Part shown: piece by piece, positions 5,878 to 49,108 of the stretch
How the letters are laid out: each line of letters begins with the position of its first letter
Numbering within the stretch: position 1 is the stretch's first letter
Assembly (NCBI GenBank): GCA_964016885.1
Contig: OZ024740.1
Span: forward strand, 29,016,001-29,080,000
Length of the DNA: 64,000 nt
From: Eledone cirrhosa
Taxonomy: Eukaryota
Reading direction: 5' to 3'
Program-made: the position numbers and the translations under genes
Notes under the pieces: generated by a model
What the model saw: the letters and a program-made list of their open reading frames with translations, nothing else
Told to the model about the DNA's origin: nothing
Database searches by the model: none

Positions 5878-6181
5878 ATATATATATATATATACATTAT
5901 GTATGTTTCCGAGCTGTGTCGGGAGGTCGCCACAATTAAAAAAAAGTGGTCAATGTGGTAGAGTATAAGAAACTTTATTATATATAGAAATGATTTTATA
6001 CAGGACTAGAACTGTTTCATTCGGGAGAAATTATCAGGAAGCCATATATATATATATGTATATATATGTTTTTTCACAAAAAAGTATTCTGTCTCTTATA
6101 TATTCCATGTGCCATTACCAACCTCAATTTTCTCTATAACCTTCGTTTTGTGTAGTAAATTACACTTTTCATATATACTAA

Positions 6182-6979
6182 CCTACGCAAATCCGGAAAA
6201 TAGCACTGGAACAAGACAACACAACTTCAAACTCCAATATAAATGAGGAAATCCTGAAAATCCTAAAAGAGATAAATGGAAAACTCACCATTCTGACAAA
6301 AAAACAGGATATACCCCAAACCACCACACCGACTGACAACCAAATTTATTTAAACGTTCAAAACGTATGCAACTCCATCGAAAAACTTATGAATACCAAC
6401 ACAGAACAGACGACATTGCTCCATATCAAAAACTTTAAAAGGACGCACCAAACAGATAACCCATTTATAAAGCATTTGAACATAACAAGAACTACAACAG
6501 ACACATTTACACCACCAAACCCAACACACACTAACCACAGGCACATCCCCCACCAACACAAACCAAATACGGCCAACTACACCAAAAGAAATACACCCAA
6601 CCACCACAACACAGGTTTCCGTAGAAATGCCCCCTACATAAACCAACGACGAAATAACATAGATCCAACTCACAACACACACACCACATTCCTCAGAAGA
6701 AATCCACCCAGACCACTTGAAATCACAACAGAACTTACCCACAACCACACCAGACATCACCCTCAATCCAACAAAAGACAACCCCCCAACCTCAACACTC
6801 CTTACCACAGAAATAACGCACCCAGACCACATGAACCAACAACAGAACCCTTGCTCATCAACAACCACAACACATACCACCCCACCATCACATTCACCCT
6901 CATGAAACAACAAGCTACAGACCCACACGCAACAGACCAACAAAATATAATCACACACAAAACTACATTCCTTTTTTAG
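6182..6979 (+). CDS. Upstream ORF (ORF1-like; coiled-coil then N/T/H/R/P-rich) of the Penelope-like element, 5' truncated
   Basis: Frame open from 6182 (PTQIRKIALEQ..EEILKILKEINGKLTIL) through the track ORF 6389-6979; same C/A-rich composition as the downstream RT ORF. Confidence 0.5.
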   Translation, partial: PTQIRKIALEQDNTTSNSNINEEILKILKEINGKLTILTKKQDIPQTTTPTDNQIYLNVQNVCNSIEKLMNTNTEQTTLLHIKNFKRTHQTDNPFIKHLNITRTTTDTFTPPNPTHTNHRHIPHQHKPNTANYTKRNTPNHHNTGFRRNAPYINQRRNNIDPTHNTHTTFLRRNPPRPLEITTELTHNHTRHHPQSNKRQPPNLNTPYHRNNAPRPHEPTTEPLLINNHNTYHPTITFTLMKQQATDPHATDQQNIITHKTTFLF

Positions 6980-7007
6980 GGAAAAGTCTGAAATACCAGG
7001 ATACTCG

Positions 7008-9293
7008 ATGCCCCCCCCCCCCCCCCCTCATGAGAAACCCAAAATAATAAACCTCTCAAAGACACCTCTAACCAACACACAAATCAACATTTTAAGTAAG
7101 GGCCTGAAATTTACACCTACACCACGTAAACCAAACTTCCCCGAAATGAAGGATGACATCATGGAATACTGCCGAAAGCTGCGACTAACGGAATTCTTCC
7201 ACAACGACACCAACACTGAAGACGAATCACTGGTTAGAAATAAAAGCAATTTCTGCTCACAAAAGGGAAGAAATAAAGCACTGGACACGTACTGCGAACA
7301 CATCACCAACTTTCCCTATGAAAAAATTACAAATAAACACACGAAATCAAACCTATCTACACACGAATGGGAAGAATTATTCACACTTAGAAACAACCCT
7401 GAGATAACTATCAAAGAAGCCGATAAAGGCAGTACTGTTGTCATTATGAATACGGACTACTATAGGACCCTCGCACTTAACATTTTAGAAAACAACACAT
7501 ACTATGAAAAAACAGAAAACTACAAACACACCAAAACAATGGGGAACCTTTTGACCTTACTGAATAAATACCGCAACAGCTTAACCACAAAAGAGTTTAA
7601 CTATATAAGCCACTTCAAATGCAATACAAGCTCTTTTTACGGCTTACCGAAACTCCACAAATGTAAACCCATAAACGATGCATGTGACACCTCAACCAAC
7701 AATTACATTGAACTAACACCACCAGAAGACCTAAAACTCAGGCCAATTATAGCAGGCCCTACATGTGAAACCCACAGACTTAGCAACTTTCTGGACATCC
7801 TACTGAAACCCTTTCTACAACATATACAGAGCTACATACGAGATGACCTTGACATGCTGAAACACCTCCCTAAAACAGTAAGTGCAAATACAATTCTTGT
7901 CTCCTTTGACGTAATAAACCTCTACACAAACATACCCCACAACTATGGAATAACAGCAGTCCAATACTGGCTTAACACACACCCATCACAAATACCGACA
8001 CGCATCAACAAAGACTTTATCACTGACGGACTCCGCTTTATCCTACAAAATAACTACTTCACATTCAATGGTTCAACATACAGACAAGTATCAGGTACGG
8101 CAATGGGCACGAAAGTAGCACCCACATATGCCAACCTAGTCATGGGATTCCATGAACAACAAATATACAGTCAGTCCCTTCTCTTATTTGGAGACTCTTT
8201 CCACACACACCTCAAAGCCAATTGGAAAAGATATCTAGACGACTGCTTTATCCTATGGCAAGAAGACATGAACTCACTTACTATGTTTAAAAACATGATA
8301 AACAACATAGATAATAACATACAATTCACAATGGAATCCAATCCCAAGGAATTAGCCTTCTTGGATATTCTCATCTCTGTAATAGACGGGAAATTAGATA
8401 CAGATATATTCTATAAACCCACAGATTCCAAGCAATACCTCTTTTTCACATCAAGTCACCCAAAACATACAAAACTTAACATTCCTTACAATTTGGCCAA
8501 ACGTATATGTACCATAGTATCAGATCCACCTAAACGGGAGCAAAGACTAAAGGAACTAAAAGACACCCTTATCTTAAGAGCCTTTCCACTTGAAATAATC
8601 AACAATGGAATAGACAGGGCAAAACACCTAAATCCCCATCAACTTAACAATCCAAAACAGAAAACCACACTCAACACCCTGCCATATGTATCCACTTTCA
8701 ACCCCAGAAATACCGAAATGTTTGATCACCTACACAAAAACCTCCCCATCCTACTTAAAGATGTAAAAATGAAGTCTATTCTTGAAACACACAAGATCCT
8801 TAAAAGTAAAAGACAACCCAAATCACTTAAACGCATTCTCACTGGACCAAATATACCCAAACCAATCCTCAACCCTACAGTTACCAAATGTGGTAGAACA
8901 AACTGTGGAACGTGCCTCTACCTCACTGAAGGACAAACATTTACATTCAAAGATGGCCAAACATTTACAGTAAAAAACAATTTCACCTGCAACTCGGAGA
9001 ACTTGATTTACGCAATAACTTGCGGTGGGTGCAAACACAACTACATAGGACAGACGGGCACCTCATTACGCAAAAGAATGACCATCCACCGCCAACAAAT
9101 CCGGGACGCTAACACAAGAAAAATCCCCTTGAGCAGCCATATTGCGAACTGCGCAGGAATGACACTACCCAACTTTAAAATCTTCCCCTTCTACAAGTGC
9201 TCAGATTCGTTCACACAGCAACAAAGAATAAACAAAGAAAATCTATTCCTCAACAAATTTAAACCAAAACTAAACGGGTTATCACCCCAATAG
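7008..9293 (+). CDS. Penelope-like retroelement polyprotein: reverse transcriptase + GIY-YIG endonuclease, apparently intact
   Basis: IINLS..LSKGLKFTPTP, IKEADKG, FYGLPKLHK, RPIIAG, SFDVINLYTNIP, GTAMGTKVAPTYANL, RYLDD, FLD, YKPTD, CxxxxCxxC linker, NLIYAITC..C..YIGQT..RKRM..H; no internal stops in 761 aa. Confidence 0.95.
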   Translation: MPPPPPPHEKPKIINLSKTPLTNTQINILSKGLKFTPTPRKPNFPEMKDDIMEYCRKLRLTEFFHNDTNTEDESLVRNKSNFCSQKGRNKALDTYCEHITNFPYEKITNKHTKSNLSTHEWEELFTLRNNPEITIKEADKGSTVVIMNTDYYRTLALNILENNTYYEKTENYKHTKTMGNLLTLLNKYRNSLTTKEFNYISHFKCNTSSFYGLPKLHKCKPINDACDTSTNNYIELTPPEDLKLRPIIAGPTCETHRLSNFLDILLKPFLQHIQSYIRDDLDMLKHLPKTVSANTILVSFDVINLYTNIPHNYGITAVQYWLNTHPSQIPTRINKDFITDGLRFILQNNYFTFNGSTYRQVSGTAMGTKVAPTYANLVMGFHEQQIYSQSLLLFGDSFHTHLKANWKRYLDDCFILWQEDMNSLTMFKNMINNIDNNIQFTMESNPKELAFLDILISVIDGKLDTDIFYKPTDSKQYLFFTSSHPKHTKLNIPYNLAKRICTIVSDPPKREQRLKELKDTLILRAFPLEIINNGIDRAKHLNPHQLNNPKQKTTLNTLPYVSTFNPRNTEMFDHLHKNLPILLKDVKMKSILETHKILKSKRQPKSLKRILTGPNIPKPILNPTVTKCGRTNCGTCLYLTEGQTFTFKDGQTFTVKNNFTCNSENLIYAITCGGCKHNYIGQTGTSLRKRMTIHRQQIRDANTRKIPLSSHIANCAGMTLPNFKIFPFYKCSDSFTQQQRINKENLFLNKFKPKLNGLSPQ

Positions 9294-9614
9294 AATTGTC
9301 ATAAAATATAAACACAAATAAGCACGGAGTGACAGATATATGTGTTTGTATGTGTGCATGTATATAATTATCACTACTATTAAAGACCAGAGACCAATTC
9401 TGTAGAATCAGGTTTATTCGTTGACAGACCATGCCTTTGTGTGACCAACACATCCATGTTAAACCCTGCACGTGCACACACATATATCTATATATATATG
9501 CGCACACAGAATTCATCACTGTCGGTTGCGGGGCCCAATCTACATGAAGAACTCAATGTGATCAGAATGACTTGTATTTTAATTTCACTGCCCTAACTTC
9601 TTATATTATGGAAA

Positions 9615-10078
9615 CAATATATGTGTATGTATGTATATATATATATATTTGGAGGCCATTTCTCTGTGTGGTGTATGTATGTGTATATGTGTATGTGTGT
9701 GTGTGTATGTGTGTGCATGTGGATGTATGTATTGTGTGTGCGTGTGTGTGTGTATGTATGTGTGGGTGTGTGTGTATATATATATATGTATGTATATGTG
9801 TGTATATATGTGTAGGTACACATATATATATATATATGTGTGTGTGTGTATGTATGTGTGTATCTGGATGTATGTGTATGTATATATATGTGTGTGTGTA
9901 TATATATATGTGTGTGTATGTGCATATATGTGTGTGTATGTGTGTATGTATATGTAAGTGTGTGTGTATGTATGTGTGTATATGTATATATATATATGTA
10001 TATGTATATATATGTATATATATATATATATATATATGTATATGTATATATGTATATGTATATATGTATATATATATA
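9615..10078. repeat. (TA)n/(TG)n compound microsatellite
   Basis: Direct reading. Confidence 0.95.
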
Positions 10079-10590
10079 ATTAAGTTAAAAGTGTACATCT
10101 ACATATGTATACGGAAATATTAGTATGCATATAAATACACACATGTATACATATGTACATGTACTGAGTTTTTCACTGGACACTTTACTGTGAGTGTCCA
10201 GCTAGTCTGTATGTAACCAAACAGACAAACCGGGTTTTAGAGTCATACGGGTTTTCAAGGAAACACATTTCCTCTATTCTCCAGAGAGTCCAATATTCCT
10301 GTCTGGCTCTCTGGAGAATAGAGGAAATGTGTTTCCTTGAAAACCCGTATGACTCTAAAACCCGGTTTGTCTGTTTGGTTACATACAGACTAGCTGGACA
10401 CTCACAGTAAAGTGTCCAGTGAAAAACTCAGTACATGTACATATGTATACATGTGTGTATTTATATGCATACTAATATTTGCGTATACATATGTAGATGT
10501 ACACTTTTAACTTAATTGTTTAAGCGTCAGTCATACAAAAGTGAGTTAGAAGCGAAACGAAATTTAATTTCGTTTCGTTATTTGTTTTTA
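10078..10590. mobile_element. Fold-back copy of the 469-bp retrozyme-like family D
   Basis: 10078-10287 is the reverse complement of ~10308-10517; sense arm starts at gtc/caatattcc (10288) and matches the 42310-42605 unit; flanked by (TA)n. Confidence 0.9.
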
Positions 10591-10646
10591 TATATATATA
10601 TATATACATATATACATATATATATGTATATATATATATGTATATG

Positions 10647-10679
<33 letters not shown>

Positions 10680-11040
10680 ATGTGTATGTATATGTATATG
10701 TATGTATGTGTGGATGAAGGTATGTGTGTATATATGTGTAAGTGCACTAAATCGCTTTCTATCAATCTCCCCTCTCCTACCGACCACAGGGAGATATATG
10801 TATGTATACTGCTTCCACCCCCTCACTGACCAGCAGCTGGCCATCTGGCCATTGCTAAATCTGACCTTTATAAAATAACCCACACCCCCAAATAACTTCT
10901 CATTCACTACCAGAAAGGCACACAGCAGTCAACTAGCTGCTACCAAGATGAAAACTACTATGAAATTCCACAATGAATTTTATACTTGAATTTTCAAATC
11001 TCAAATTTTAACTCTTCCTATTATTAATTTTTCTTAATAT

Positions 11041-11231
11041 TAATCAACATTTGAAAAGATGGCTTTTGCGGACCCATCGAAACCGGTCATTTTTTATACC
11101 CTTTATTATTTCCTTACCTTATAAAATTATATGTTTTTTCACAAAAAAGTATTCTGTCTCTTATATATTCCATGTGACATTACCAACCTCAATTTTCTCT
11201 GTAACCTTCGTTTTGTGTAGTAAATTACACT

Positions 11232-11240
<9 letters not shown>
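11041..11240 (+). repeat. PLE-type terminal repeat with degenerate hammerhead; 11133-11240 repeats 6068-6175
   Basis: gatgg..ccatc-GAAA-ccgg-TC with decayed 5' core; gttttttcacaaaaaagtattctgtctc..aattacacttttcat occurs at both sites. Confidence 0.65.
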
Positions 11241-13354: not shown

Positions 13355-15035
13355 TGTTATACTTTGGGAAGGTCATGTTGCCAATAAGAAACACACGCAC
13401 CAGTTGCTTTCACTTCAATTTATTATAATAAATTTATAAATTTAGGAATTTATAAATTTCTGGTTGGTTGGTTGGTTCCACAACCAGATAGTTGTTTATA
13501 TATTGTCAAAGTTCTTTCGTCACACATTCTGTGACCTCTTCAGTGACTGGGGATTCTTTTCTTTGTTTTTATACCTCTCCTTTGTTCTGTCCTACGCCAT
13601 TTTGTTTCCGTGTGTGTGTTGTGTGCTCAGTCTGCGCATGCGCCACATCCGGGTGTCTGTGTGTGTTTATATTTGTTTATTTATTTGTTTACTTACATGT
13701 TATTGGTTGGTTGTTTGTTCTATGTGTGTGTGTGTTTTCATTTTGTCCTTAATTGTAAGTTGTGATGTTGCTGTTCCACTCATATTTTCTATTTAATTTT
13801 GGTTGTAATTCTTTTATGTTTATTGCCTCTGTAATTTGTCTAAACATTGCATCTTTTCTGTGTGTAGATTCTATTTTTATTTCTATGTTCTCTAATTTAC
13901 CCTTGTGTTCTATCTTAGCATGTTGGTAGAGAACAGATGATTCTTTATTATCTTGAAGGTCTCGCCAGTGTTCATTTATCAGTTCCCCTATACTACGAGC
14001 TGTTTCACCTATGTACACTATTTTTTGTTTCTACATTGTCCTTCAGTACATCTTATGCTATACACTACATTTCTAGTTTTACAGTTAATATGGGGGCTTA
14101 TTTTACAGGTTATACATTTCTTATCTATACAGGGGGGTCTTTGGAAAGGGTATGTCTTGCTAATAAGTGTTTTTACGGAGGTACCTGGTCTTTCTACTAT
14201 CTTAATATTGAGCTTATGTTTATCTAGGGCCCTTCTAAATTTGTAAGCTAATTCACCTCTAGGGGTTGTATCGATGAACATTATACTCTGGTATTTATTG
14301 CTAACATACCATGAGTTTATTCTATTAGCCTTATTCCTAGTTCTTTCTATTCTATTCCAAAATTTTCTCCTATACAAGGGGCAGGTCCCATTTGTGTCAT
14401 TATTTACCATTTTTTCCCATTTGGTTCTGGCTCCTCTATACACTCTGATTCTATCTCTCTGATTGTAACCAGAGAACTGCATACGGTGGATGAAGTGTTG
14501 TATGTGTCTCTCTAGTTCTTCGGGGTTGCACATGCGGGACACGTTTCTCATCACCCGTACCAAATCCGCAATCAGTATGTTGATTTTGGTATGGTCCGAA
14601 ACATCCGAGTTTCGGTGGATCAGATGTTTGGAAATAATGGGTTTGGCATGATGGGAATGGAGGATTTGTTTTTTGTTATTAATGGTATCTAACCAGAGCT
14701 CTGTGTCTAGTACAGGTAATCGATGGTTGGGGTGTTTACTTGGGTAGTCTATAGTAACTCTAATACTCTGGTGGATGGAGTTAGCTATTTGCTGGATGCT
14801 TTCCATTGTGTTTTTCTCTAGTTCCTGACTGTTCTCTAGTGGGGGTGTCTTAACTACGATGTTTATATCGTCAACGTAGCGGGAGTACATTATCAGGGTT
14901 AAGGGGTCTTCTAATTGTTCTTTAAGTTTAAGTTTAAGTCTATTGTCCCACCATACCATGAATAAGTTAGCTATGTCGCCTGCAATGCTAACACCAATGG
15001 TGGTTTTCAGTATCTTGTTAGCCTGGCTAAGGCTT
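13350..15035 (-). mobile_element. Penelope-like element, 5' truncated (RT C-terminal half, GIY-YIG, 3' region)
   Basis: ORF 14018-15160: IANLFM..W, YSRYVDD, LPVLD, CxxCxxC, NVVYSIRC; frameshift ~14020 into YIGETARS..EH (13749-14018). Confidence 0.9.
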
Positions 15036-15037
15036 AC

Positions 15038-16422
15038 GATATTTCGTTTCTGAATTTGTTTAGCAAGATACTTTATCTGAAATCGTGTGTTGAAACCGAT
15101 ATTGTTATACTTTGGGAGGGTCATGTTGCCAATAAGAAACACACGCACCAGTTGTTTCACTTCAATTTATTATAATAAATTTATAAATTTAGGAATTTAT
15201 AAATTTCTGGTTCGTTGGTTGGTTCCACACCAGAGTATTAGAGTTACTATAGACTACCCAAGTAAACACCCCAACCATCGATTACCTGTACTAGACACAG
15301 AGCTCTGGTTAGATACCATTAATAACAAAAAACAAATCCTCCATTCCCATTATGCCAAACCCATGACTTCCAAACATCTGATCCATCGGCTGTTTCGGAC
15401 TATACCAAAATCAACATATTGATTGCGGATTTGGTACGGGTGATGAGAAACGTGTCCCGCATGTGCAACCCCGAAGAACTAGAGAGACACATACATCACT
15501 TCATCCACCGTATGCAGTTCTCTGGTTACAATCAGAGAGATAGAATCAGAGTGTATAGAGGAGCCAGAACCAAATGGGAAAAAATGGTAAATAATGACAC
15601 AAATGGGACCTGCCCCTTGTATAGGAGCAAATTTTGGAATAGAATAGAAAGAACTAGGAATAAGGCTAATAGAATAAACTCATGGTATGATAGCAATAAA
15701 TACCAGAGTGTAATGTTCATCGATACAACCCCTAGAGGTGAATTAGCTTACAAATTTAGAAGGGCCCTAGATAAACATGAACTCAATATTAAGATAGTAG
15801 AAAGACCAGGTACCTCCGTAAAAACACTTATTAGCAAGACATACCCTTTTCAAAGAAACTCATGTATAGATAAGAAATGTATAACCTGTAAAATAAGCCC
15901 CCATATTAACTGTAAAACTAGAAATGTAGTGTATAGCATAAGATGTACTGAAGGACAATGTAGAGACAAAAATATAGTGTACATAGGTGAGACAGCCCGT
16001 AGTGTAGGGGAACGGATAAATGAACACTGGCGAGACCTGCAAGATAGTAAAGAATCATCTGTACTCTACCAACATGCTAAAATAGAACATAAGGGTAAAT
16101 TAGAGAACATAGAAATAAAAATAGAATCTACACACAGAAAATAGAATCTACACACAGCGCTCTGTGTCTAGTACAGGTAATCGATGGTTGGGGTGTTTAC
16201 CTGGGTAGTCTATAGTAACTCTAATACTCTGGTGTGGAACCAACCAACCAACCAACCAGAAATTTATAAATTCCTAAATTTATAAATTTATTATAATAAA
16301 TTGAAGTGAAAGAAACTGGTGCGTGTGTTTCTTATTGGCAACATGACCCTCCCAAAGTATAACAATATCGGTTTCAACACACGATTTCAGATAAAGAATC
16401 TTGCTAAACAAATTCAGAAACG

Positions 16423-16953: not shown

Positions 16954-18500
16954 TCCTGTTGAGGGTCTTTTGCCACAAATGACGTCAATGAGATCCCCCT
17001 GTAGTTGTTGGTGTTAGAGAGATCTCCCTTTTTTGGCACTTGGACGATGTTACTGATCCTCCACTGATTCGGGGCAACTCCTTTCTCCAGTACCTGGTTA
17101 CAGAACCCCAGGATGATATCATCAAAATCACACCTCTTCATCGCCTCTGATGCCATTCCATCTTCTCCGTGAGCCTTGCCCTCCTTGATCTTCTTCTTGG
17201 TTCTCTGAAGCTCCTCTCTGGTGAAGGGCTCCTTCTCAATATCCAGTTCTTCAAACAGCCGCGTGATCTCCCAAGTGCTCTGGGCTGTGGAGGCGGCTCT
17301 CCTAGTAGGGTCCTGTGATTGAGAAGAAGCTCAGGGCCAACCAGAACGGCTTCAGAGAGGTAAGATCAACCGTCACATCCCGATGCTGAGGAGGATATTA
17401 GAGCAAAGTGCCTTCCTGCGGTCATGGTTTTCATTGATTTAAGAAGGCCTTCGATTCTGTGGACCGTCACTGCCTGATGAAGGCTTATGGAATCCCCAAG
17501 AAGATAGTTGACCTGATATCACTGCTCTACACCAACACCAAAGCCGAACTCATTACACCTGATGGGATGACAGAGTTTTTTGAGATACTGGCTGGAGTGT
17601 TCCAGGGAGATACATTGGCTCCCTACCTTTTTATCATCGTAGTGGACTATTGTATGCGCCTTGCACTGGAGAAACACCAGAACTCTGGCTTAACTTTAGC
17701 ACCGGCTCAGAGCAGGAGAGTCAAGGCGAAAAAGATACCGGATGCTGAATTTGCCGACGACATAGTTTCGGTGACAAATACAGTGAAGGAGGCAGAGGAT
17801 TTGATGCAGGAGGTTGAGACTATGTCGATGATTGTGGGGCTGAGAATGAATGAGACTAAAACAAAATATCTGGCAGAGAATGTTGAGAAGCCAGAGGGGA
17901 TCACTAATGTAGACGGGAAGACGCTAGAATTGGTTGAGAGCTTCCTGTATTTGGAAGCAAAGATTGGGAATACGGAAGATGAGGTGCTTGAGAGGAAGAG
18001 CAAGGCCTGGGCGGTGTGCCACAGCTTGAGATCGGTGTGGAAGTCAGACCTTCGTAAAGACCTGAAAATTCGCCTCTTCATTGCTGTAGTGGAATCTGTG
18101 CTGCTGTACGGGTCTGAGACTTGGACACTGACCAAGAAACTCACTCAGATGGTAGATGGGTTCTACACGAGAATGCTGAGGATGTCTCTGAACATTAATC
18201 AGTATACACTGAGGATGAAAAACTCAGAGTTGCATAGGAGCCTCCCAAAAGTCAGCTCAAAAGTGACACAGAGGAGATTGAGGTTAGCTTGACATGCTCA
18301 CCGACATCCAGAGTTGACATTGCACTCAGTGCTCCCGTGGGAGCCCCTACATGGACACACTGGAAGAGGAAAACCAAGGTTAACGTATATTGATGCCCTA
18401 AGGACAGACACTGGTCTGTTGGACACAGGACATGGCAGCGATAATGAGGGACAGAGACCGCTGAAGAGAACTCGTCCATGGATCTCGGGAATTTTACCCG
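16950..18500 (+). mobile_element. RTE-clade LINE RT fragment with 5' inversion (16950-17316 minus, 17317-18500 plus)
   Basis: Minus arm: VPKKGDLSNTNNYRGISL; plus arm: KAFDS-like, MKAYGIP, GVFQGDTLAPYLF, EFADD, VLLYGSETWTLT, RRLRLA, GRGKPRLTYID. Confidence 0.85.
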
Positions 18501-36139: not shown

Positions 36140-38314
36140 TTGCATTTATCTTGCTTTATGTTTATACGAGTTATCACCAAGTCACAACCAGTGACCTCAA
36201 GAGACAACAAGATCCGCCATGTTCAAGAAAGAACACACATATTCACACATGCATCCTTAGTGTTTAGACTTGTGATGTACTTATATTGACAGGATCTTCC
36301 TTAGTATATGGGCAGTTCCCATTAGTACTATCTTTTGTATTTCTCCTATACGCGGGTTTCCTGGGATTTGCGATAAGTAGTCGTTAGACCCCTTAGGTAT
36401 CATTCCCAGAGCGCCTACAACCACTGGTATTGTTTTAGTTCTCAATTTCCACATTTTTCCAATTTCTATCTCCAGGTCCTTATACTTGCTCAATTTTTCA
36501 AATGTTTTTATAGATACATTCTTGTCTATTGGAACAGACATATCAATTAGCAGGCATACCCTCCTTTGAAAGTCCTTCAATATTATATCAGGTCTATTTG
36601 CATCTATTTTTCGGTCTGTTTGGATGCTAAAGTTCCACAAGATTGAGATGTGATCTTTTTCAAGTATGGGAGGTGGTTGATGCTCCCACCAATTCTTTTG
36701 ATGGGGCAGGTCAAAATGCTTACACATTATCCAATGTATGTATTGTGCAGCTCTGTCATGCCTGTTTAGGTATTCGGTTGGAGCTATAGGACTGCACATT
36801 GAAATTATATGGTCAATGGTCTCTGGTTGTTTTTTGCATACACGGCATAATGGGCTCCACCCATTTTTTATTATGTTGGCTTGGTAATTTTTTGTTGGCA
36901 GACACTGATCTTGTGCGGATATAATCAGTCCTTCAGTCTCCGATTTCAGTCCAGAGGATGCCAACCACTGATGGGTTAAAGTTTTGTCAACATCAGGATT
37001 GTTAGCTCGCTCTGGGTATTTTCCATACAGAGGCTTTTCTTGCCATTTCTTAGCCAGTTTCTGTAGCAGTTCTTTCTTTGCAGTTACTTTTACCTGCTTT
37101 GCTTTTTCTGTGTTTTCCATTTCAGCAGTAAATGGGACTTCTGAAATTTGTAGTCCATTACTGTATCTTTGTGCATCTTTTGTAATGGAATATGATCTTT
37201 TGGTGCTTTCGTGTTTCAAAACGAGTTTGATCATCCAATCATGTGATTCCCTTAGATATGTGGATAATCCAATTGTTGCAGTTTTCAACGCAATGTCTAA
37301 CTGGATTAACCCACGTCCTCCTTCTTTCCTAGGGAGATATATTCTATCTATGTCTGCCTTAGGGTGATGCATTCTGTGCATGGTTAAGAATTTTCGGATT
37401 TTTGTATCGAGCCTACGGATCTCTGTGCTTGACCAGTTGATGACATTGTAACTGTAGGTTACTACTGGTATGGCAAGCGTGTTTATGGCATCGATCCTAT
37501 TCCTTGCATTCAATTCCGTTCTTAAGATTGCTCTGACTCTGCGGTAACATTCCTTCCTTATCCTTTCCCTCATTGTCGAGTGCTTGATTCCGTCTCCTTC
37601 ACAAACACCTAGATATTTGTAAGTTTGTTCTTGATCAAGCTCTCTTATCACGTTCCCCCGATCAAGATTAATGTCTGAACTCTTCAGCAGCTTTCCTCTG
37701 GTGAACGTTGCTTTGGCGCATTTATCCAGTCCAAACTCCATTTTAATGTCATCACTGAACTGCTTCACAGTGGATAATAGCCCTTGCAATTGTTCATCAT
37801 TTTTTGCAAATAGTTTCAGGTCATCCATGTAGAACAGGTGATTAATGGTTTTGTCATAGACTCTATATCCATGTTTTGTTTCATTGAGCATTTTACTTAA
37901 TGGTATAAGTGCGATGCAGAATAAAAGCGGTGATAAAGAGTCACCCTGAAAAATTCCACAATTAATGTTAACTTCTCCAGCTTCCAGTGATTTTGTTTCA
38001 CTATTCAAAAGGAGTGTCGTTCTCCATGTCCTCATACCGAATGACAAAAACCTCCTGATAACGGGGGATATTTTGAAAATCTCTAAACATTTTTCAATCC
38101 AACTGTGTGGCAAACTATCAAATGCTTTTTTATAATCTATCCAAGCAATCGATAGATTTTTGTGTCTATTATGACAATCTTCCAGTATCATTTTGTTAAC
38201 CAGAAGCTGATCCTTACTGCCATATGAGCCTCGTTTACACCCTTTCTGCTCAATGGGAAATAGGTCATTTGTTATCAGGTGGTCATATGTGTATTCAGTT
38301 AGGACTGATGTTAA
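36140..38314 (-). mobile_element. R4/Dong-clade non-LTR retrotransposon, 5' truncated, uninterrupted ORF (RT + CCHC + RLE) flanked by (TAA)n
   Basis: ORF 36281-38191, open upstream to ~38314: WIDYKKAFDS, GIFQGDSLSPLLF, YMDDLKL, YKYLG, EGGRGL, CRVC..ETIDHIISMC, RHD, RPD..D..EKLSKY; (TAA)n at 36115-36140 and 38315-38375. Confidence 0.92.
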
Positions 38315-38315
38315 A

Positions 38316-38384
<69 letters not shown>

Positions 38385-38659
38385 TAAGCAAGTATTACAC
38401 CAAGAGAAATATAAATGAGATCAAGAATTTATTTGCTTTGACATATGTTTCTGTGTCTATTATAATTGTCTACGTATGCTGATTACCATATATTTTGTTC
38501 AATCACATGCAATACTTAATTATTTATCAGACTTCATCAGAGTCAAACTCTCTGGTAAGCAGTTTTCTTGTTTATGCATCATTACTGATATACATAAACG
38601 AAAGCTTATCTACCTGCACCAAACACACGCACTTATATATATATGTATATATATATGTA

Positions 38660-39741: not shown

Positions 39742-40098
39742 AAAGAAAAAAAGATGAAATCGAAAATGCAACTGGAGTCTTATTTGAAAAAATATATATA
39801 TTTATTTGGTTCCTTTACCGGTTTCGCAGTTCTTCTGCTTTTCTAAAGTAGAGTTGAGATAGAGGGTGTGTGGTTTTTCTCACATCAGATGTGAGAAAAA
39901 CCACAGACCCTCCATCTCAACTCTACTTTTGAAAAGCAGAAGAACTTCGAAACCAGTAAAGGAACCAAATAAATATATATATATTTTTTTAAATAAGACT
40001 CCAGTTGCATTTTCGATTTCATCTTTTTTTCTTTATACTTTCACTCGTGTAGGACACCTCGGTTATTTTTGAATTTGTAAAAAATACCTCACTTTCTA

Positions 40099-41905: not shown

Positions 41906-42151
41906 ATGTATATATATATATATATATATATACAATTAAGTTAAAGTGTACATCTACATATGTATACGGAAGTATTAGTATGCATATAAATACACACATG
42001 TATACATATGTACATGTACTGAGTTTTTCACTAGACACTTTACAGTGAGTGTCAGCTAGTCTGTACGTAACCACACAGACGGACCGGGTTTTAGAGTCAT
42101 ACGAGTTTTCGAGGAAACACATTTCCTCTATTCTCCAGAGGGCCAGACAGG

Positions 42152-42196
42152 AATATTGGACTAGTTTCGATGTTATTACATCTCATCAGCAATATT
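42152..42196 (-). ncRNA. Minimal type I hammerhead ribozyme (family D)
   Basis: Reverse complement aatattg-CTGATGA-gatgtaataacatc-GAAA-ctag-TC-caatatt. Confidence 0.9.
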
Positions 42197-42740
42197 TACC
42201 CATCTTCCGGCTTCTCTGGAGAATTGTAAAAGCACATATCGTTATATGCTTTTTCCATGAAAATTAGTAGTGGGTAGACTAATTTGCATACTAGTCCAAT
42301 ATTCCTGTCCAATATTCCTGTCTGGCCCTCTGGAGAATAGAGGAAATGTGTTTCCTTGAAAACTCGTATGACTATAAAACCCGGTCCGTCTGTGTGGTTA
42401 CGTACAGACTAGCTGACACTCACTGTAAAGTGTCTAGTGAAAAACTCAGTACATGTACATATGTATACATGTGTGTATTTATATGCATACTAATACTTCC
42501 GTATACATATGTAGATGTACACTTTAACTTAATTGTTTAAGCGTCAGTCATACAAAAGTGAGTTAGAAGCGAAACGAAATTTAATTTCGTTTCGTTATTT
42601 GTTTTTATCGTTTCCGCTGAACCGGTGCGTACAATGACTCACGTTCTATGCAAATTAGTCTACCCACTACTAATTTTCATGGAAAAAGCATATAACGATA
42701 TGTGCTTTTACAATTCTCCAGAGAAGTCGGAAGATGGGTA

Positions 42741-42785
42741 AATATTGCTGATGAGATGTAATAACATCGAAACTAGTCCAATATT
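42741..42785 (+). ncRNA. Minimal type I hammerhead ribozyme (family D), predicted cleavage after 42778
   Basis: Stem I aatattg/caatatt (7 bp), core CTGATGA, stem II gatgt/acatc, GAAA, palindromic stem III ACTAGT, GUC triplet. Confidence 0.92.
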
Positions 42786-43209
42786 CCTGTCTGGCCCTCT
42801 GGAGAATAGAGGAAATGTGTTTCCTTGAAAACTCGTATGACTCTAAAACCCGGTCCGTCTGTGTGGTTACGTACAGACTAGCTGACACTCACTGTAAAGT
42901 GTCTAGTGAAAAACTCAGTACATGTACATATGTATACATGTGTGTATTTATATGCATACTAATACTTCCGTATACATATGTAGATGTACACTTTAACTTA
43001 ATTGTTTAAGCGTCAGTCATACAAAAGTGAGTTAGAAGCGAAACGAAATTTAATTTCGTTTCGTTATTTGTTTTTATCGTTTCCGCTGAACCGGTGCGTA
43101 CAATGACTCACGTTCTATGCAAATTAGTCTACCCACTACTAATTTTCATGGAAAAAGCATATAACGATATGTGCTTTTACAATTCTCCAGAGAAGTCGGA
43201 AGATGGGTA

Positions 43210-43254
43210 AATATTGCTGATGAGATGTAATAACATCGAAACTAGTCCAATATT
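43210..43254 (+). ncRNA. Minimal type I hammerhead ribozyme (family D), predicted cleavage after 43247
   Basis: Identical to 42741-42785. Confidence 0.92.
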
Positions 43255-43651
43255 CCTGTCTGGCCCTCTGGAGAATAGAGGAAATGTGTTTCCTTGAAAA
43301 CTCGTATGACTCTAAAACCCGGTTCGTCTGTGTGGTTACGTACAGACTAGCTGACACTCACTGTAAAGTGTCTAGTGAAAAACTCAGTACATGTACATAT
43401 GTATACATGTGTGTATTTATATGCATACTAATACTTCCGTATACATATGTAGATGTACACTTTAACTTAATTGTTTAAGCGTCAGTCATACAAAAGTGAG
43501 TTAGAAGCGAAACGAAATTTAATTTCGTTTCGTTATTTGTTTTTATATATATATATATATATATATATAGTTGTCTATAATGGTAGCTAAGGTGCTTCCA
43601 TAGGCGGTATGCCAAAATTAGCACACGATATTCATCACAGTAGAGTGTAGA

Positions 43652-44810
<1,159 letters not shown>

Positions 44811-45624: not shown

Positions 45625-46394
45625 ATTTCGTTTCTGAATTTGTTTAGCAAGATTTTTATCTGAAAACGTGTGTTGAAACAGATACTGTTATACTTTGGGA
45701 GGGTCATGTTGCCAATAAGAAACACACACAGCAGTTGCTTTCACTTCAATTTATTATAAATTTAATTTATAAATTTAGGAATTTATAAATTTCCGGTTGG
45801 TTGGTTGGTTCCACAACCAGACGATTGTTCATATATTGTCAAAGTTGTGAGTGTTGTGTGCTTACATCCGGGTGTCTGTGTGTGTTTTTATTTGTTTATT
45901 TATTTGTTTATTTACATGTTACTAGTTAGTTGTTTGTTCTATGTATGTATTTTCATTTTGTCCTCGATTATAAGTTGTGATGTTGCTATTCCATTCATGT
46001 TTTCTATTTAATTTTGGTTGGAGTTCATTTATATTTATTGCCTCTGTGATTTGTCTAAACATTGCGTCTTTTCTGTGTGTAGATTTTATTTTTATCTCTA
46101 TGTTCTCTAATTTGCCCTTATGTTGTATTTTAGCATGTTGGTGGAGTATTGATGAGTCTTTTCTATCTTGGAGTTCTCGCCAGTGTTCATTTAATCGTTC
46201 TCCTATGCTACGAGCTGACTCACCTATGTACATTATATTCTTATTTTTACATTGTCCCTCAGTACATCTTATGCTATATACTATGTTTGTAATTTTACAT
46301 TTAATATGGGGACTTAGCTTACAGATTATGCATTTCCTATCTATACAGGGAGGTCTTTTCAGATAAAGAATCTTGCTAAACAAATTCAGAAACG

Positions 46395-46400
<6 letters not shown>
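45625..46400 (-). mobile_element. Penelope-like 3' fragment with short inverted terminal copy
   Basis: CIICK..NIVYSIRC..YIGESARS..EH in ORF 45922-46551; 46355-46400 inverts 45625-45665; same family as 13350-16425. Confidence 0.85.
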
Positions 46401-46435
<35 letters not shown>

Positions 46436-46504
46436 TATATATATATACACACACACACATATATATATATATACACGCACACATATATATACACACACAC
46501 ATAA

Positions 46505-46690
46505 GTTATCCCGGGCTCGATCGAGGTAACCACAATGAGTAAGGTACTCAATACAAAGCAGAGTATAAATGTTTAATATAGAAAAGCTTCTACAGGATTA
46601 GAACTGTTTCATTCTTGAGAAATCATAAGGAAGCGCTGATGATTTCTCAAGAATGAAACAGTTCTAGTCCCGTAGAAGCTTTTCTACATA
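46505..46690. mobile_element. Fold-back family B element (hammerheads 46586-46634 minus; 46636-46679 plus)
   Basis: CTGATGA-tttctcaagaat-GAAA-cagttctagtcccg-TA-gaagc and mirror copy. Confidence 0.85.
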
Positions 46691-47209: not shown

Positions 47210-48872
47210 GAGAGTATTGAATTTGCTTGAAGCATTGTGGAATAATAAGGTAAATTTGTTTAAGTCGTTTGGAAGCCTCGACATTGCAGATTGGTAAATC
47301 TCCGAGTAACAAGATCCGATGATGGAGAGTGAGATATAAGTGGGTGTACGTTGAGATGCGTGGGTGTATAAGACTGTAGCGTGTAGAGGAATGAAGGAAA
47401 GAGCGTCGAGAAAGAGTTACCATGGGAGAGATTTAATTGTCCCTATACATTTCGGATTGACATCCATCAACTGGGGTTTTTTCAGGGGGGGAAGGTTGTC
47501 TGTCGGAAAGGTGCGAAACGTGTCCTCTGCTGTTCGTTGTTTTGAATATCTGAGGTATTCAGCAGAGCGCGCGTGTGCGTGAAATGGGGTCGGTCAGGCA
47601 GAGGTCAGCGGCCGTAGTAGTTCTTTCAATTGTGGGAGTGGGGTGGCGCTAGCTGCCAGTCCATTCTCTGCCTGTTGAGTGAATGTTACTGTGTGTGTCT
47701 GCGTGTGTTGTTGTCTCGCTTGAGTGTGTGTGTGTGTGTGTGCGTGTGTTGTTGCGTTGTTCCTCTGTATTGGCAGTGAAGTATGTTCGTATGGTGGAAT
47801 TATACTGTGTGTGTGTGTGCGTGAGTTGCTGTCTCGCTTGTGTGTGTGTGTGCGTGTGTTGCTGCATCGTTTGTTAACTTAAACCAACCACCTCATTTCG
47901 CTTCTCTCGGATTGGTCGTTTAATTGTGGCCCTAGGCGTTTGATCCAAAGTGCTTCATTGATACGTAACGTGCCGACGTTTCTTTCTGTCGCTAGTATTG
48001 TGAGAATGGGCCTTCCGTCTTTGTTTCCGCATTTGGCTATGTGTTTCCGGAAAGACGAGGCCCTGGTGTTAGTGTGTTCCTTGATCCGGATGTGCAACGG
48101 CCGGATTGTGCTACCTATATAGTATTGGTTGCACTTGTTACATTCTATCTTATACCCGACGTATGTGCGTAGGCAACAGTTCGCATGGCGCATCGGGCAG
48201 TCTCTGAGGGAGCACGCGTCAGTTGATTTCCCGGGTTTCCTGAAGAGACATCTTCGCAGGGAGGGGCCCGAGTGGGCCAGGTGGATGTCGAGGCCCTCCC
48301 TCCGTATAGCCTTGCGGATAGCGTTGGTGGTATTCTCTCCCAGGTGTGGCATTTTAAAGAAGCACTTGCCTTGGGTGCCTCGCTGTCTCTTGTGTCTGGT
48401 GTCTGCTACTCTGTCTGTGAGCGAGGTAGGGTACCCGTTCGTCTCCAGCACCTCGAGGAATCGCTTGGTATGAGTGACACCACTCGCGGGATCACTGCAT
48501 CTGTTTTTTGATTCGCGCGATCTCGTTCGTGATGTATCCTCTTTTGGCACTGTTAGGGAGGGCGGACTTGCAGTGGACGAACAGGTCCCTGCAGGCTGCC
48601 TTTCGGTAGAAGTTGCAGTGGATCCCTCCCTGTTCCGTGATGTTGATTCGGAAGTGGAGGGGGGCAAGTGACCCGTCGTCGTTGGGGTGTTCAACACTGA
48701 AGTCAATGTTCTCTTCCGTGTTGTTGAACGTCTCATAGATTCTGTTCGCCATGTCTTGGGAAGATGTGAGGATGAGGATATCGTCCACGTACCTTGAGAA
48801 AAAGGCGACGGCGTTGGGGTGGCAGGCGTTGAGTGCCTTGCGCTCGAGGTTGTCCATGTAAGAGATAGCTAG

Positions 48873-48875
<3 letters not shown>
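47210..48875 (-). mobile_element. Penelope-like element, 5' truncated (RT C-terminal part + GIY-YIG, frameshifted)
   Basis: LAISYMDNLE..FFSRYVDDILIL..FYRK (48492-48875); YKIECNKCNQYYIGSTIRPLHIRIKEH..EALWIK..PQLN (47879-48470). Confidence 0.85.
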
Positions 48876-48917
<42 letters not shown>

Positions 48918-48920
<3 letters not shown>

Positions 48921-49108
48921 CGAAGGAAATGTGGAAAGGAACCAGGTGGACCATAACGCACCAAAGTACTCAATACTTAAGGTAGTAGAGTGGGTAATAG
49001 GAACAAGTAAGACCCCGACGGCTGAGCTCAAGCCGTTTCGACGGCTAATTCTGTACAGAATTATCCGTCGAAACGGCTTGAGCTCAGCCGTCGGGGTCTT
49101 ACTTGTTC

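Follow-up and report, generated by a model that had tools for sequence, protein, structure and literature searches.

Hammerhead ribozymes punctuate a class of animal repeats, the metazoan non-LTR retrozymes, which the accessible parts of the published accounts describe as tandem, AT-rich units that lack coding capacity, carry a single type I hammerhead apiece, fold stably and lie dispersed as monomers to multimers, and for which reliance on Penelope-like elements (PLEs) and circular templates has been proposed (PMC7229834; 10.64898/2026.07.22.740005). Circular RNAs are expressed from retrozymes (Cervera and de la Pena, 2020, PMC7229834); northern blots in the same source place these at 170-400 nt, and published unit sizes range from 51 to 972 bp (10.64898/2026.07.22.740005). 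Reverse transcription of these circles by Penelope-like enzymes is proposed, not shown (PMC7229834; PMC7761336; 10.64898/2026.07.22.740005), and cleavage was seen for only one of nine predicted dimers of frog retrozymes (Li, Clavereau and Pollet, 2026, 10.64898/2026.07.22.740005). Coding PLEs, in the text available, carry an inverted 5' copy together with a tail of 30-40 bp on one end, and target duplications of 8-10 bp are standard among them (PMC8557442; PMC3846280). A purified Penelope-like protein cuts and extends both target strands in vitro, starts at two internal sites bounding the tail and has no need for ribozyme cleavage, unprocessed RNA being its main substrate in the portions of that work at hand (PMC11167929). 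The return of retrozyme RNA to DNA and the tandem-plus-inverted PLE copies with a tail on one end are both unsolved in this literature.

The family of 469-nt units described here from Eledone cirrhosa resembles both kinds of element. It is a further non-LTR retrozyme, of a kind already known, and differs from the metazoan retrozymes with expressed circles in being known from DNA alone; as far as their accessible text goes, the accounts of those retrozymes hold no two-armed inverted insertions, no two fixed ends and no editing marks (PMC7229834; 10.64898/2026.07.22.740005). With endonuclease-positive PLEs it shares, again within the text available, the head-to-head inverted 5' arm, the one-end tail, AT-rich or (TA)n targets, duplications of ~10 bp and a hammerhead that lies upstream of two internal start sites, but it has no ORF, a tail of ~70 nt instead of 30-40, and arms that can hold many whole units (PMC8557442; PMC3846280; PMC11167929). 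A literature search covering papers outside subscription returned, within the listings and text accessible, no account of two-armed retrozymes or of editing marks running through all units, and the supplements of PMC7229834 or 10.64898/2026.07.22.740005 may list such repeats. Our preferred reading, held with modest confidence, is that a Penelope-type enzyme priming from both cut target strands, and likely circling an RNA circle, writes these insertions.

The Array and Its 469-nt Unit

The window analysed is a stretch of 64,000 nt (GCA_964016885.1, contig OZ024740.1, positions 29,016,001 to 29,080,000), and positions are counted from its first letter. The array within 41,906-43,651 is one young copy of a protein-free repeat bearing hammerhead motifs. 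Tandem Repeats Finder reports a period of 469 at 42307-43546 (2.6 copies, 99% matches), adjacent units differ at one site each, and the longest stop-free frame of the unit, whose GC content is 36.7%, spans 84 aa, so that the near-identical non-coding units proposed by a sequence-only reading of this DNA are confirmed. With unit position 1 set at 42779, the base after a predicted cut, the insertion starts beyond a left (TA)n target flank, read from the sequence at 41909-41931, with an inverted arm on the minus strand, which in alignment comprises positions 338-469 followed by 1-227 (41932-42290) and has its outer end at a fixed site, here called B; the stretch 41929-42290 is 99% complementary to the sense array. 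The head-to-head joint (42290-42309, +) holds a 13-nt duplication around the cleavage site and only a partial hammerhead, the sense arm starting with unit positions 463-469, then 1-10, then 467-469 again. Two full sense units follow (42310-42778 and 42779-43247), the second being the only monomer of the locus with a complete hammerhead on both sides. A terminal partial unit (43248-43546, +; positions 1-299) ends at the other fixed site, A, and is bordered by the right (TA)n flank (43547-43569); its last part, the ~70-nt tail between B and A (43474-43546, +), has a TTAWTTGTTT-like motif at both sites.

Type I hammerhead motifs lie at 42741-42785 (+), 43210-43254 (+) and 42152-42196 (-), with predicted cleavage after 42778, 43247 and 42159, respectively. 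Their parts are a 7-bp stem I, CUGAUGA, a 5-bp stem II, GAAA, the palindrome ACUAGU and a GUC site, and among relatives compensatory changes occur in stems I and II of the motif at 42741-42785. Stem III is minimal, as described for Penelope-type motifs. The Rfam model HH9 gives all three motifs 31.8 bits, below its gathering score of 52, while a search with a strict hammerhead pattern matched 3 places in the window and nothing in 100 shuffles. The two sense hammerheads and the ribozyme-bearing inverted arm of the sequence-only reading therefore stand, and its 13-bp stutter is real, at 42294-42322. Rfam microRNA matches fell under their gathering scores and were discarded as AT-repeat noise.

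The unit folds at -155.6 kcal/mol (z = -9.3), with its two ends paired over ~30 nt, and compensatory change was seen in 26 of 139 pairs across 17 units, a count made on related sequences with no null model. Conservation within the unit is highest in the tail (6/83 sites variable vs. 52/262, p = 0.007); for the hammerhead core the comparison was not significant (1/15 vs. 52/262, p = 0.32), leaving selection on the core unsupported. The locus thus combines tandem units, two or more of them in succession with a complete type I hammerhead, non-coding content with GC below 50%, (TA)n flanks rather than LTR-type ones and a stable, conserved monomer fold. Its 469 bp exceed the 170-400 nt of the circles shown on northern blots and sit inside the published range of 51-972 bp, so the unit size, which had been placed at or above the upper end of the range, is unexceptional.

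Distribution in the Genome and the Sister Family

Junctions of one end with TA number 2,383 in the 3.0-Gb genome, a lower bound that puts the family at no fewer than 2,383 insertions, mostly in (TA)n. When the genome was searched with the unit, 39 of 753 candidates were scored and yielded 443 matches; the 45-nt hammerhead motif occurs in 901 exact copies (3,345 for a looser core), and subfamilies are 86 to 100% identical. The window itself holds a second insertion of the family (10078-10591; 96% identical, arms ending at 225 and 299), placed in the TA run of a coding Penelope-like element, and all 25 readable sister sites of this insertion are empty. The young, non-coding, hammerhead-bearing retrozyme family proposed from the sequence is supported by these data, and no coding element is attached to it in the loci examined.

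An origin as terminal repeats broken off a coding Penelope-like element, or as a satellite arising at the DNA level, appears very improbable. An inverted arm, a tail and 8-10-bp duplications are indeed standard in coding PLEs as the available text describes them (PMC8557442; PMC3846280), yet the units here run head to tail and contain no ORF, 40 loci selected solely by their A end include none that leads into an ORF, and the coding element of the window shares no detectable sequence with the unit. A DNA-level satellite is in turn hard to reconcile with dispersed fixed-end insertions, empty sister sites and a strand-skewed mutation spectrum.

A sister family has a unit of ~430 nt with ~66% identity and keeps the hammerhead core with compensated stems; its ends fall at 279 and ~223 in most of the two-armed copies examined. 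Like the 469-nt family it is two-armed, with a tail of ~56 nt, and in many of its copies the cut site reads GUA or GUU and the base of stem II is formed by a U-U pair; examples are L099 (4150-5600), L127 (2560-3900) and L139-L158, out of 3,150 first-look candidates. Hammerhead-like motifs unrelated to the family were also encountered (L036, L037, L044, L057, L108, L112), three of these six loci constituting one family with a long stem II.

Insertion Ends and Target Sites

Ends were examined at 149 loci of the family. Outer ends lie at unit position 293-300 (A; about 299) or 219-232 (B; fixed end at 225-231) and not at the cut site, A and B being internal sites of the unit ~70 nt apart. Wherever both outer ends fall on a fixed site the combination is A+B, in 92 of 92 insertions (71 + 21). 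The 71, whose arms were both recovered by BLAST, belong to a set of 117 loci in which a further 7 have a very short second arm (one doubtful), 34 have one fixed end only and 1 has none, 3 extend past the sequence taken and 1 represents two abutting insertions; 40 of the 117 were chosen by the A end, so that B+B could not show among those. The 21 come from 32 loci all chosen by the A end, and hence blind to B+B, of which 3 others have a short arm, 4 one end and 4 are cut off. Among 79 rows not chosen for their ends, 56 are two-armed, 49 of them A+B and 7 with one end elsewhere, and neither A+A nor simple B+B occurs in these 56. In the locus list L124 was dropped as a duplicate of L123, L102 and L103 were merged, and the short-arm call at L110 is attributed to chance. 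L123 and L124 (G000:C1:55.97 and 55.99 Mb) have an identical layout 17.7 kb apart and constitute a segmental or assembly duplicate.

Flanks are TA-rich on both sides in 42 of 49 two-armed insertions under a strict cut-off, and at 4 of 5 non-TA sites examined the target is duplicated over 9-16 nt, microhomology included. An inverted 5' arm with a tail at one end, an AT-rich target and a duplication of ~10 bp are accordingly all found, and this Penelope-type footprint agrees with the mobilisation by PLEs that the sequence-only reading cites for metazoan retrozymes. The two fixed ends correspond to the Penelope tail and, at the level of sequence, point to both target strands priming reverse transcription; the strict A+B rule would follow if one target strand primed at each site.

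The two arms are uncorrelated in length (medians 563 and 668, rho 0.07). Inner ends are spread evenly over the unit, with 1 of 130 within 3 nt of the cut where ~1.9 are expected, and most head-to-head joints are blunt or have a few bases of microhomology or insertion. With inner ends so rarely near the cut and outer ends at A or B, the cleavage site was rejected as the end of the element; the view that the sense array begins there does not hold, the start in the window being itself inexact. In the twin priming of L1, two target strands prime cDNA and the joined copies give an inversion, the second primer starting at variable sites and the arms having no overlap. Priming by two strands is common to both systems, whereas the 469-nt family has two fixed sites and the whole unit repeated in each arm. 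Microhomology joints at scattered positions are easier to explain by twin priming than by the self-priming on an antisense template that the accessible text proposes (PMC3846280).

Circular or Linear Template

Three genomic features favour a circular template, namely long identical arrays, junctions free of indels and an A>G skew in insertion-wide changes. Among 502 cleavage-site junctions no indel was found at the cut site, the pattern used requiring an intact stem II, so that the 13-nt stutter of the window falls outside the 502. Units of one arm diverge as much as units of different arms, whether the latter are compared in or out of register (0.66-0.67%). Of 67 arrays with at least four copies, five have no difference at all and seven have one; a 12-kb insertion with 17 + 7 full units has no substitution among the compared positions in either arm, and a 9-kb insertion likewise has none. 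The marker haplotype of the 12-kb insertion recurs at six other places, with at most 12 units in one direction. The rolling reverse transcription suggested from the sequence gains support from the uniform arrays, the indel-free junctions and the insertion-wide changes, as far as genomic traces can speak for it.

The same two-site Penelope-type priming could instead act on uncut linear multimers transcribed from existing arrays, the ribozyme being incidental and the uniformity of arrays coming from young uniform sources together with unequal exchange and gene conversion. We regard this as unlikely, though the most serious of the alternatives. The use of unprocessed RNA as main substrate in vitro (PMC11167929, in its available part), the in-register sharing across arms in L041 and L138 and the block duplications of long arrays speak for it, but there is no general in-register signal (0.674% vs. 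0.662%), and the copying of both arms in register from one linear multimer is unsupported as a rule. Moreover, once L124 is dropped, no two separate insertions have both inner breakpoints alike, although most sources would be short and two-armed.

Not all arrays are uniform. In the young insertion L251 (2032-6733; G000:C2:316.97 Mb) the alleles of one arm recur with period 2 and those of the second arm with period 3, the arms being otherwise identical, and L066 alternates with period 2. Dimer and trimer circles left by incomplete cutting could account for this periodicity, as could block duplication, and the pattern of L251 implies that the two arms need not derive from one molecule. Alleles are shared in a nested manner in L039, L041, L068, L243, L253 and L260, and are confined to one arm at position 418 in the insertion of the window, in L062 and in L054. 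In L262 (1265-6306; G000:C744) one arm switches between haplotypes differing at 17 sites, and the switch maps to ~80 nt including the hammerhead cut site. The non-uniform arrays show mixed templates, later turnover, or both; a single monomer circle is likely the main route and not the sole one.

The L262 switch, the 13-nt stutter at the cut site in the window and the pairing of the unit's ends over ~30 nt would also suit a cut linear monomer with its ends held by the long stem I, on which the enzyme jumps the nick, to the same or another monomer, at each turn. Edits would likewise be repeated in every unit on such a template, but the 502 junctions with 0 indels at the cut site and the single inner end out of 130 within 3 nt of it make this improbable in our judgement, and a closed circle is the template we prefer.

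Two very long arrays of more than 35 units were also observed, one at L243 and L261 (G000:C1:127.66-127.68 Mb) and another at L136, L200 and L201 (C1:95.62-95.65 Mb), perhaps longer than 30 kb, both with nested block duplications; these arrays are en route to satellite DNA.

A>G Changes and Possible ADAR Editing

An edit on a monomer circle would be copied into every unit, whereas an edit on a linear multimer would reach one unit. The skew was noticed and first tested on the same 116 loci, where changes found throughout an insertion comprise 49 A>G and 8 T>C of 95, those in single units 44 and 49 of 473, and those in partial sets of units 5 and 7 of 86. On terminal branches of a tree with 127 tips, insertion-wide changes include 42 sense A>G vs. 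11 T>C of 105 (p = 2e-5), or 23 vs. 6 when counted by insertion, while single-unit changes are symmetric (58 vs. 56 of 551) and internal branches have no skew (28 vs. 24). Requiring both arms strictly leaves 16 A>G vs. 8 T>C. In 33 hold-out loci the skew was not significant, with 3 vs. 5 of 15 and 16 vs. 15 of 40, the latter including old-subfamily sites of uncertain polarity, and by a third method 8 vs. 5 of 25 (p = 0.58). The hold-out share of A>G is nevertheless higher among insertion-wide than single-unit changes (8/25 vs. 18/160, p = 0.011), and T>C leans the same way (p = 0.07). Pooled counts, among them the terminal- and internal-branch counts above, vary by method (31 vs. 11; 78 vs. 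52 events; 31 vs. 10 distinct sites). The mutation counts leave out L117, which consists of two abutting insertions, and L244-L263, picked for their A>G alleles or to extend arrays, enter none of the spectra.

The base upstream of the changed adenosines is A or U in 42 of 49 cases, vs. 96 of 145 by composition (p = 0.004), and G in 3 of 49 vs. 26 of 145; depletion of upstream G is known for ADAR from the accessible text of PMC5625713. Paired positions are not enriched among the changed adenosines (16/26 vs. 91/145). As a sole cause of the A>G changes, selection for wobble pairs is unlikely, as C>T keeps pairs too and yet is not enriched (49:8 vs. 44:77). The A>G cluster of L113 is confined genome-wide to the 3 units of that insertion and the cluster of L187 to its 4, spread over both arms. 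Unit positions 339-348, 372, 386 and 423 are recurrent sites of A>G change; the insertion of the window has one at position 372 in all three copies that cover it, an allele with 11 occurrences genome-wide. If the assembly lacks a parent copy, alleles that were inherited could appear private.

For linear multimers, on which edits should hit single units, the strand symmetry of single-unit changes and the presence of private A>G clusters in every unit are adverse, while the weak hold-out for the skew works in their favour.

Search for a Partner Enzyme

A coding Penelope-like element occupies ~6063-11240 (+) of the window, its ORF (6951-9293) holding a reverse transcriptase (Pfam) and, after a CX4CXXC motif, an endonuclease region at the C terminus, an arrangement that would assign it to the Neptune/Nematis type as presented in the available part of PMC8557442. 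The element is very young (at least 104 copies with 99-100% protein identity); its terminal pieces are both direct and inverted, its own two ends lie ~40 nt apart, and it lands in TA. In this one coding family compared, the 3' end shares no detectable sequence with the 469-nt unit (score 24 vs. shuffle means of 26-28), and as partner enzyme it is a candidate only. The unit itself has no ORF with a reverse transcriptase plus GIY-YIG between terminal repeats, as an autonomous PLE would, and 12 variants of hammerhead stem II all led to this family or its sister and to no coding partner.

Near 11050-11100, the coding element contains a hammerhead-like motif with the core UUGAAAA, the same in 5 other copies. 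In this core the C3-G8 pair has possibly been exchanged for U3-A8, and stem I of the motif is weak. Penelope-like ORF fragments of other types (14018-16144, 45922-46572 and 47879-49106, -) and LINE-like reverse transcriptase frames (36281-38428 and 17438-18292) were also noted in the window, labelled by motif with two frames scanned. Near-perfect inverted repeats at 43648-43963 and 39787-39987, with arms of 149 and 100 nt, adjoin TA runs and are possibly minimal two-armed insertions of other elements.

A Model of Insertion and Its Implications

By analogy with known retrozymes, tandem transcripts would be cut by paired hammerheads and closed by a host ligase, and a lone hammerhead with minimal stem III, cutting poorly, may leave a stable monomer circle. 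Some of these circles are likely edited by ADAR, as the A>G skew suggests. The putative enzyme would then nick both strands of a TA-rich target, giving the duplication of ~10 bp, and one strand would start synthesis at site A and the other at B, where the ends are observed. Each copy may run from a fraction of a turn to at least 17 turns before the two are joined by microhomology, as the observed joints suggest. Some templates are probably dimer or trimer circles, and long arrays may later turn over by local duplication. In its full form, with both strands priming at two fixed sites on one closed, ADAR-edited 469-nt RNA in a double rolling-circle reverse transcription, this account is tentative, and we lean slightly against taking all of its parts together.

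The family offers ~2,400 countable events, a rule of one arm per site and a 469-nt substrate with which circle and linear templates could be told apart in vitro. If the A>G marks hold genome-wide, circular RNA would be reverse transcribed in the germ line and its editing fed into DNA. Should double rolling-circle copying of edited RNA prove true, RNA edits would become heritable, strand-skewed mutations founding new subfamilies, and the genome would be a fossil record of single circular RNA molecules.
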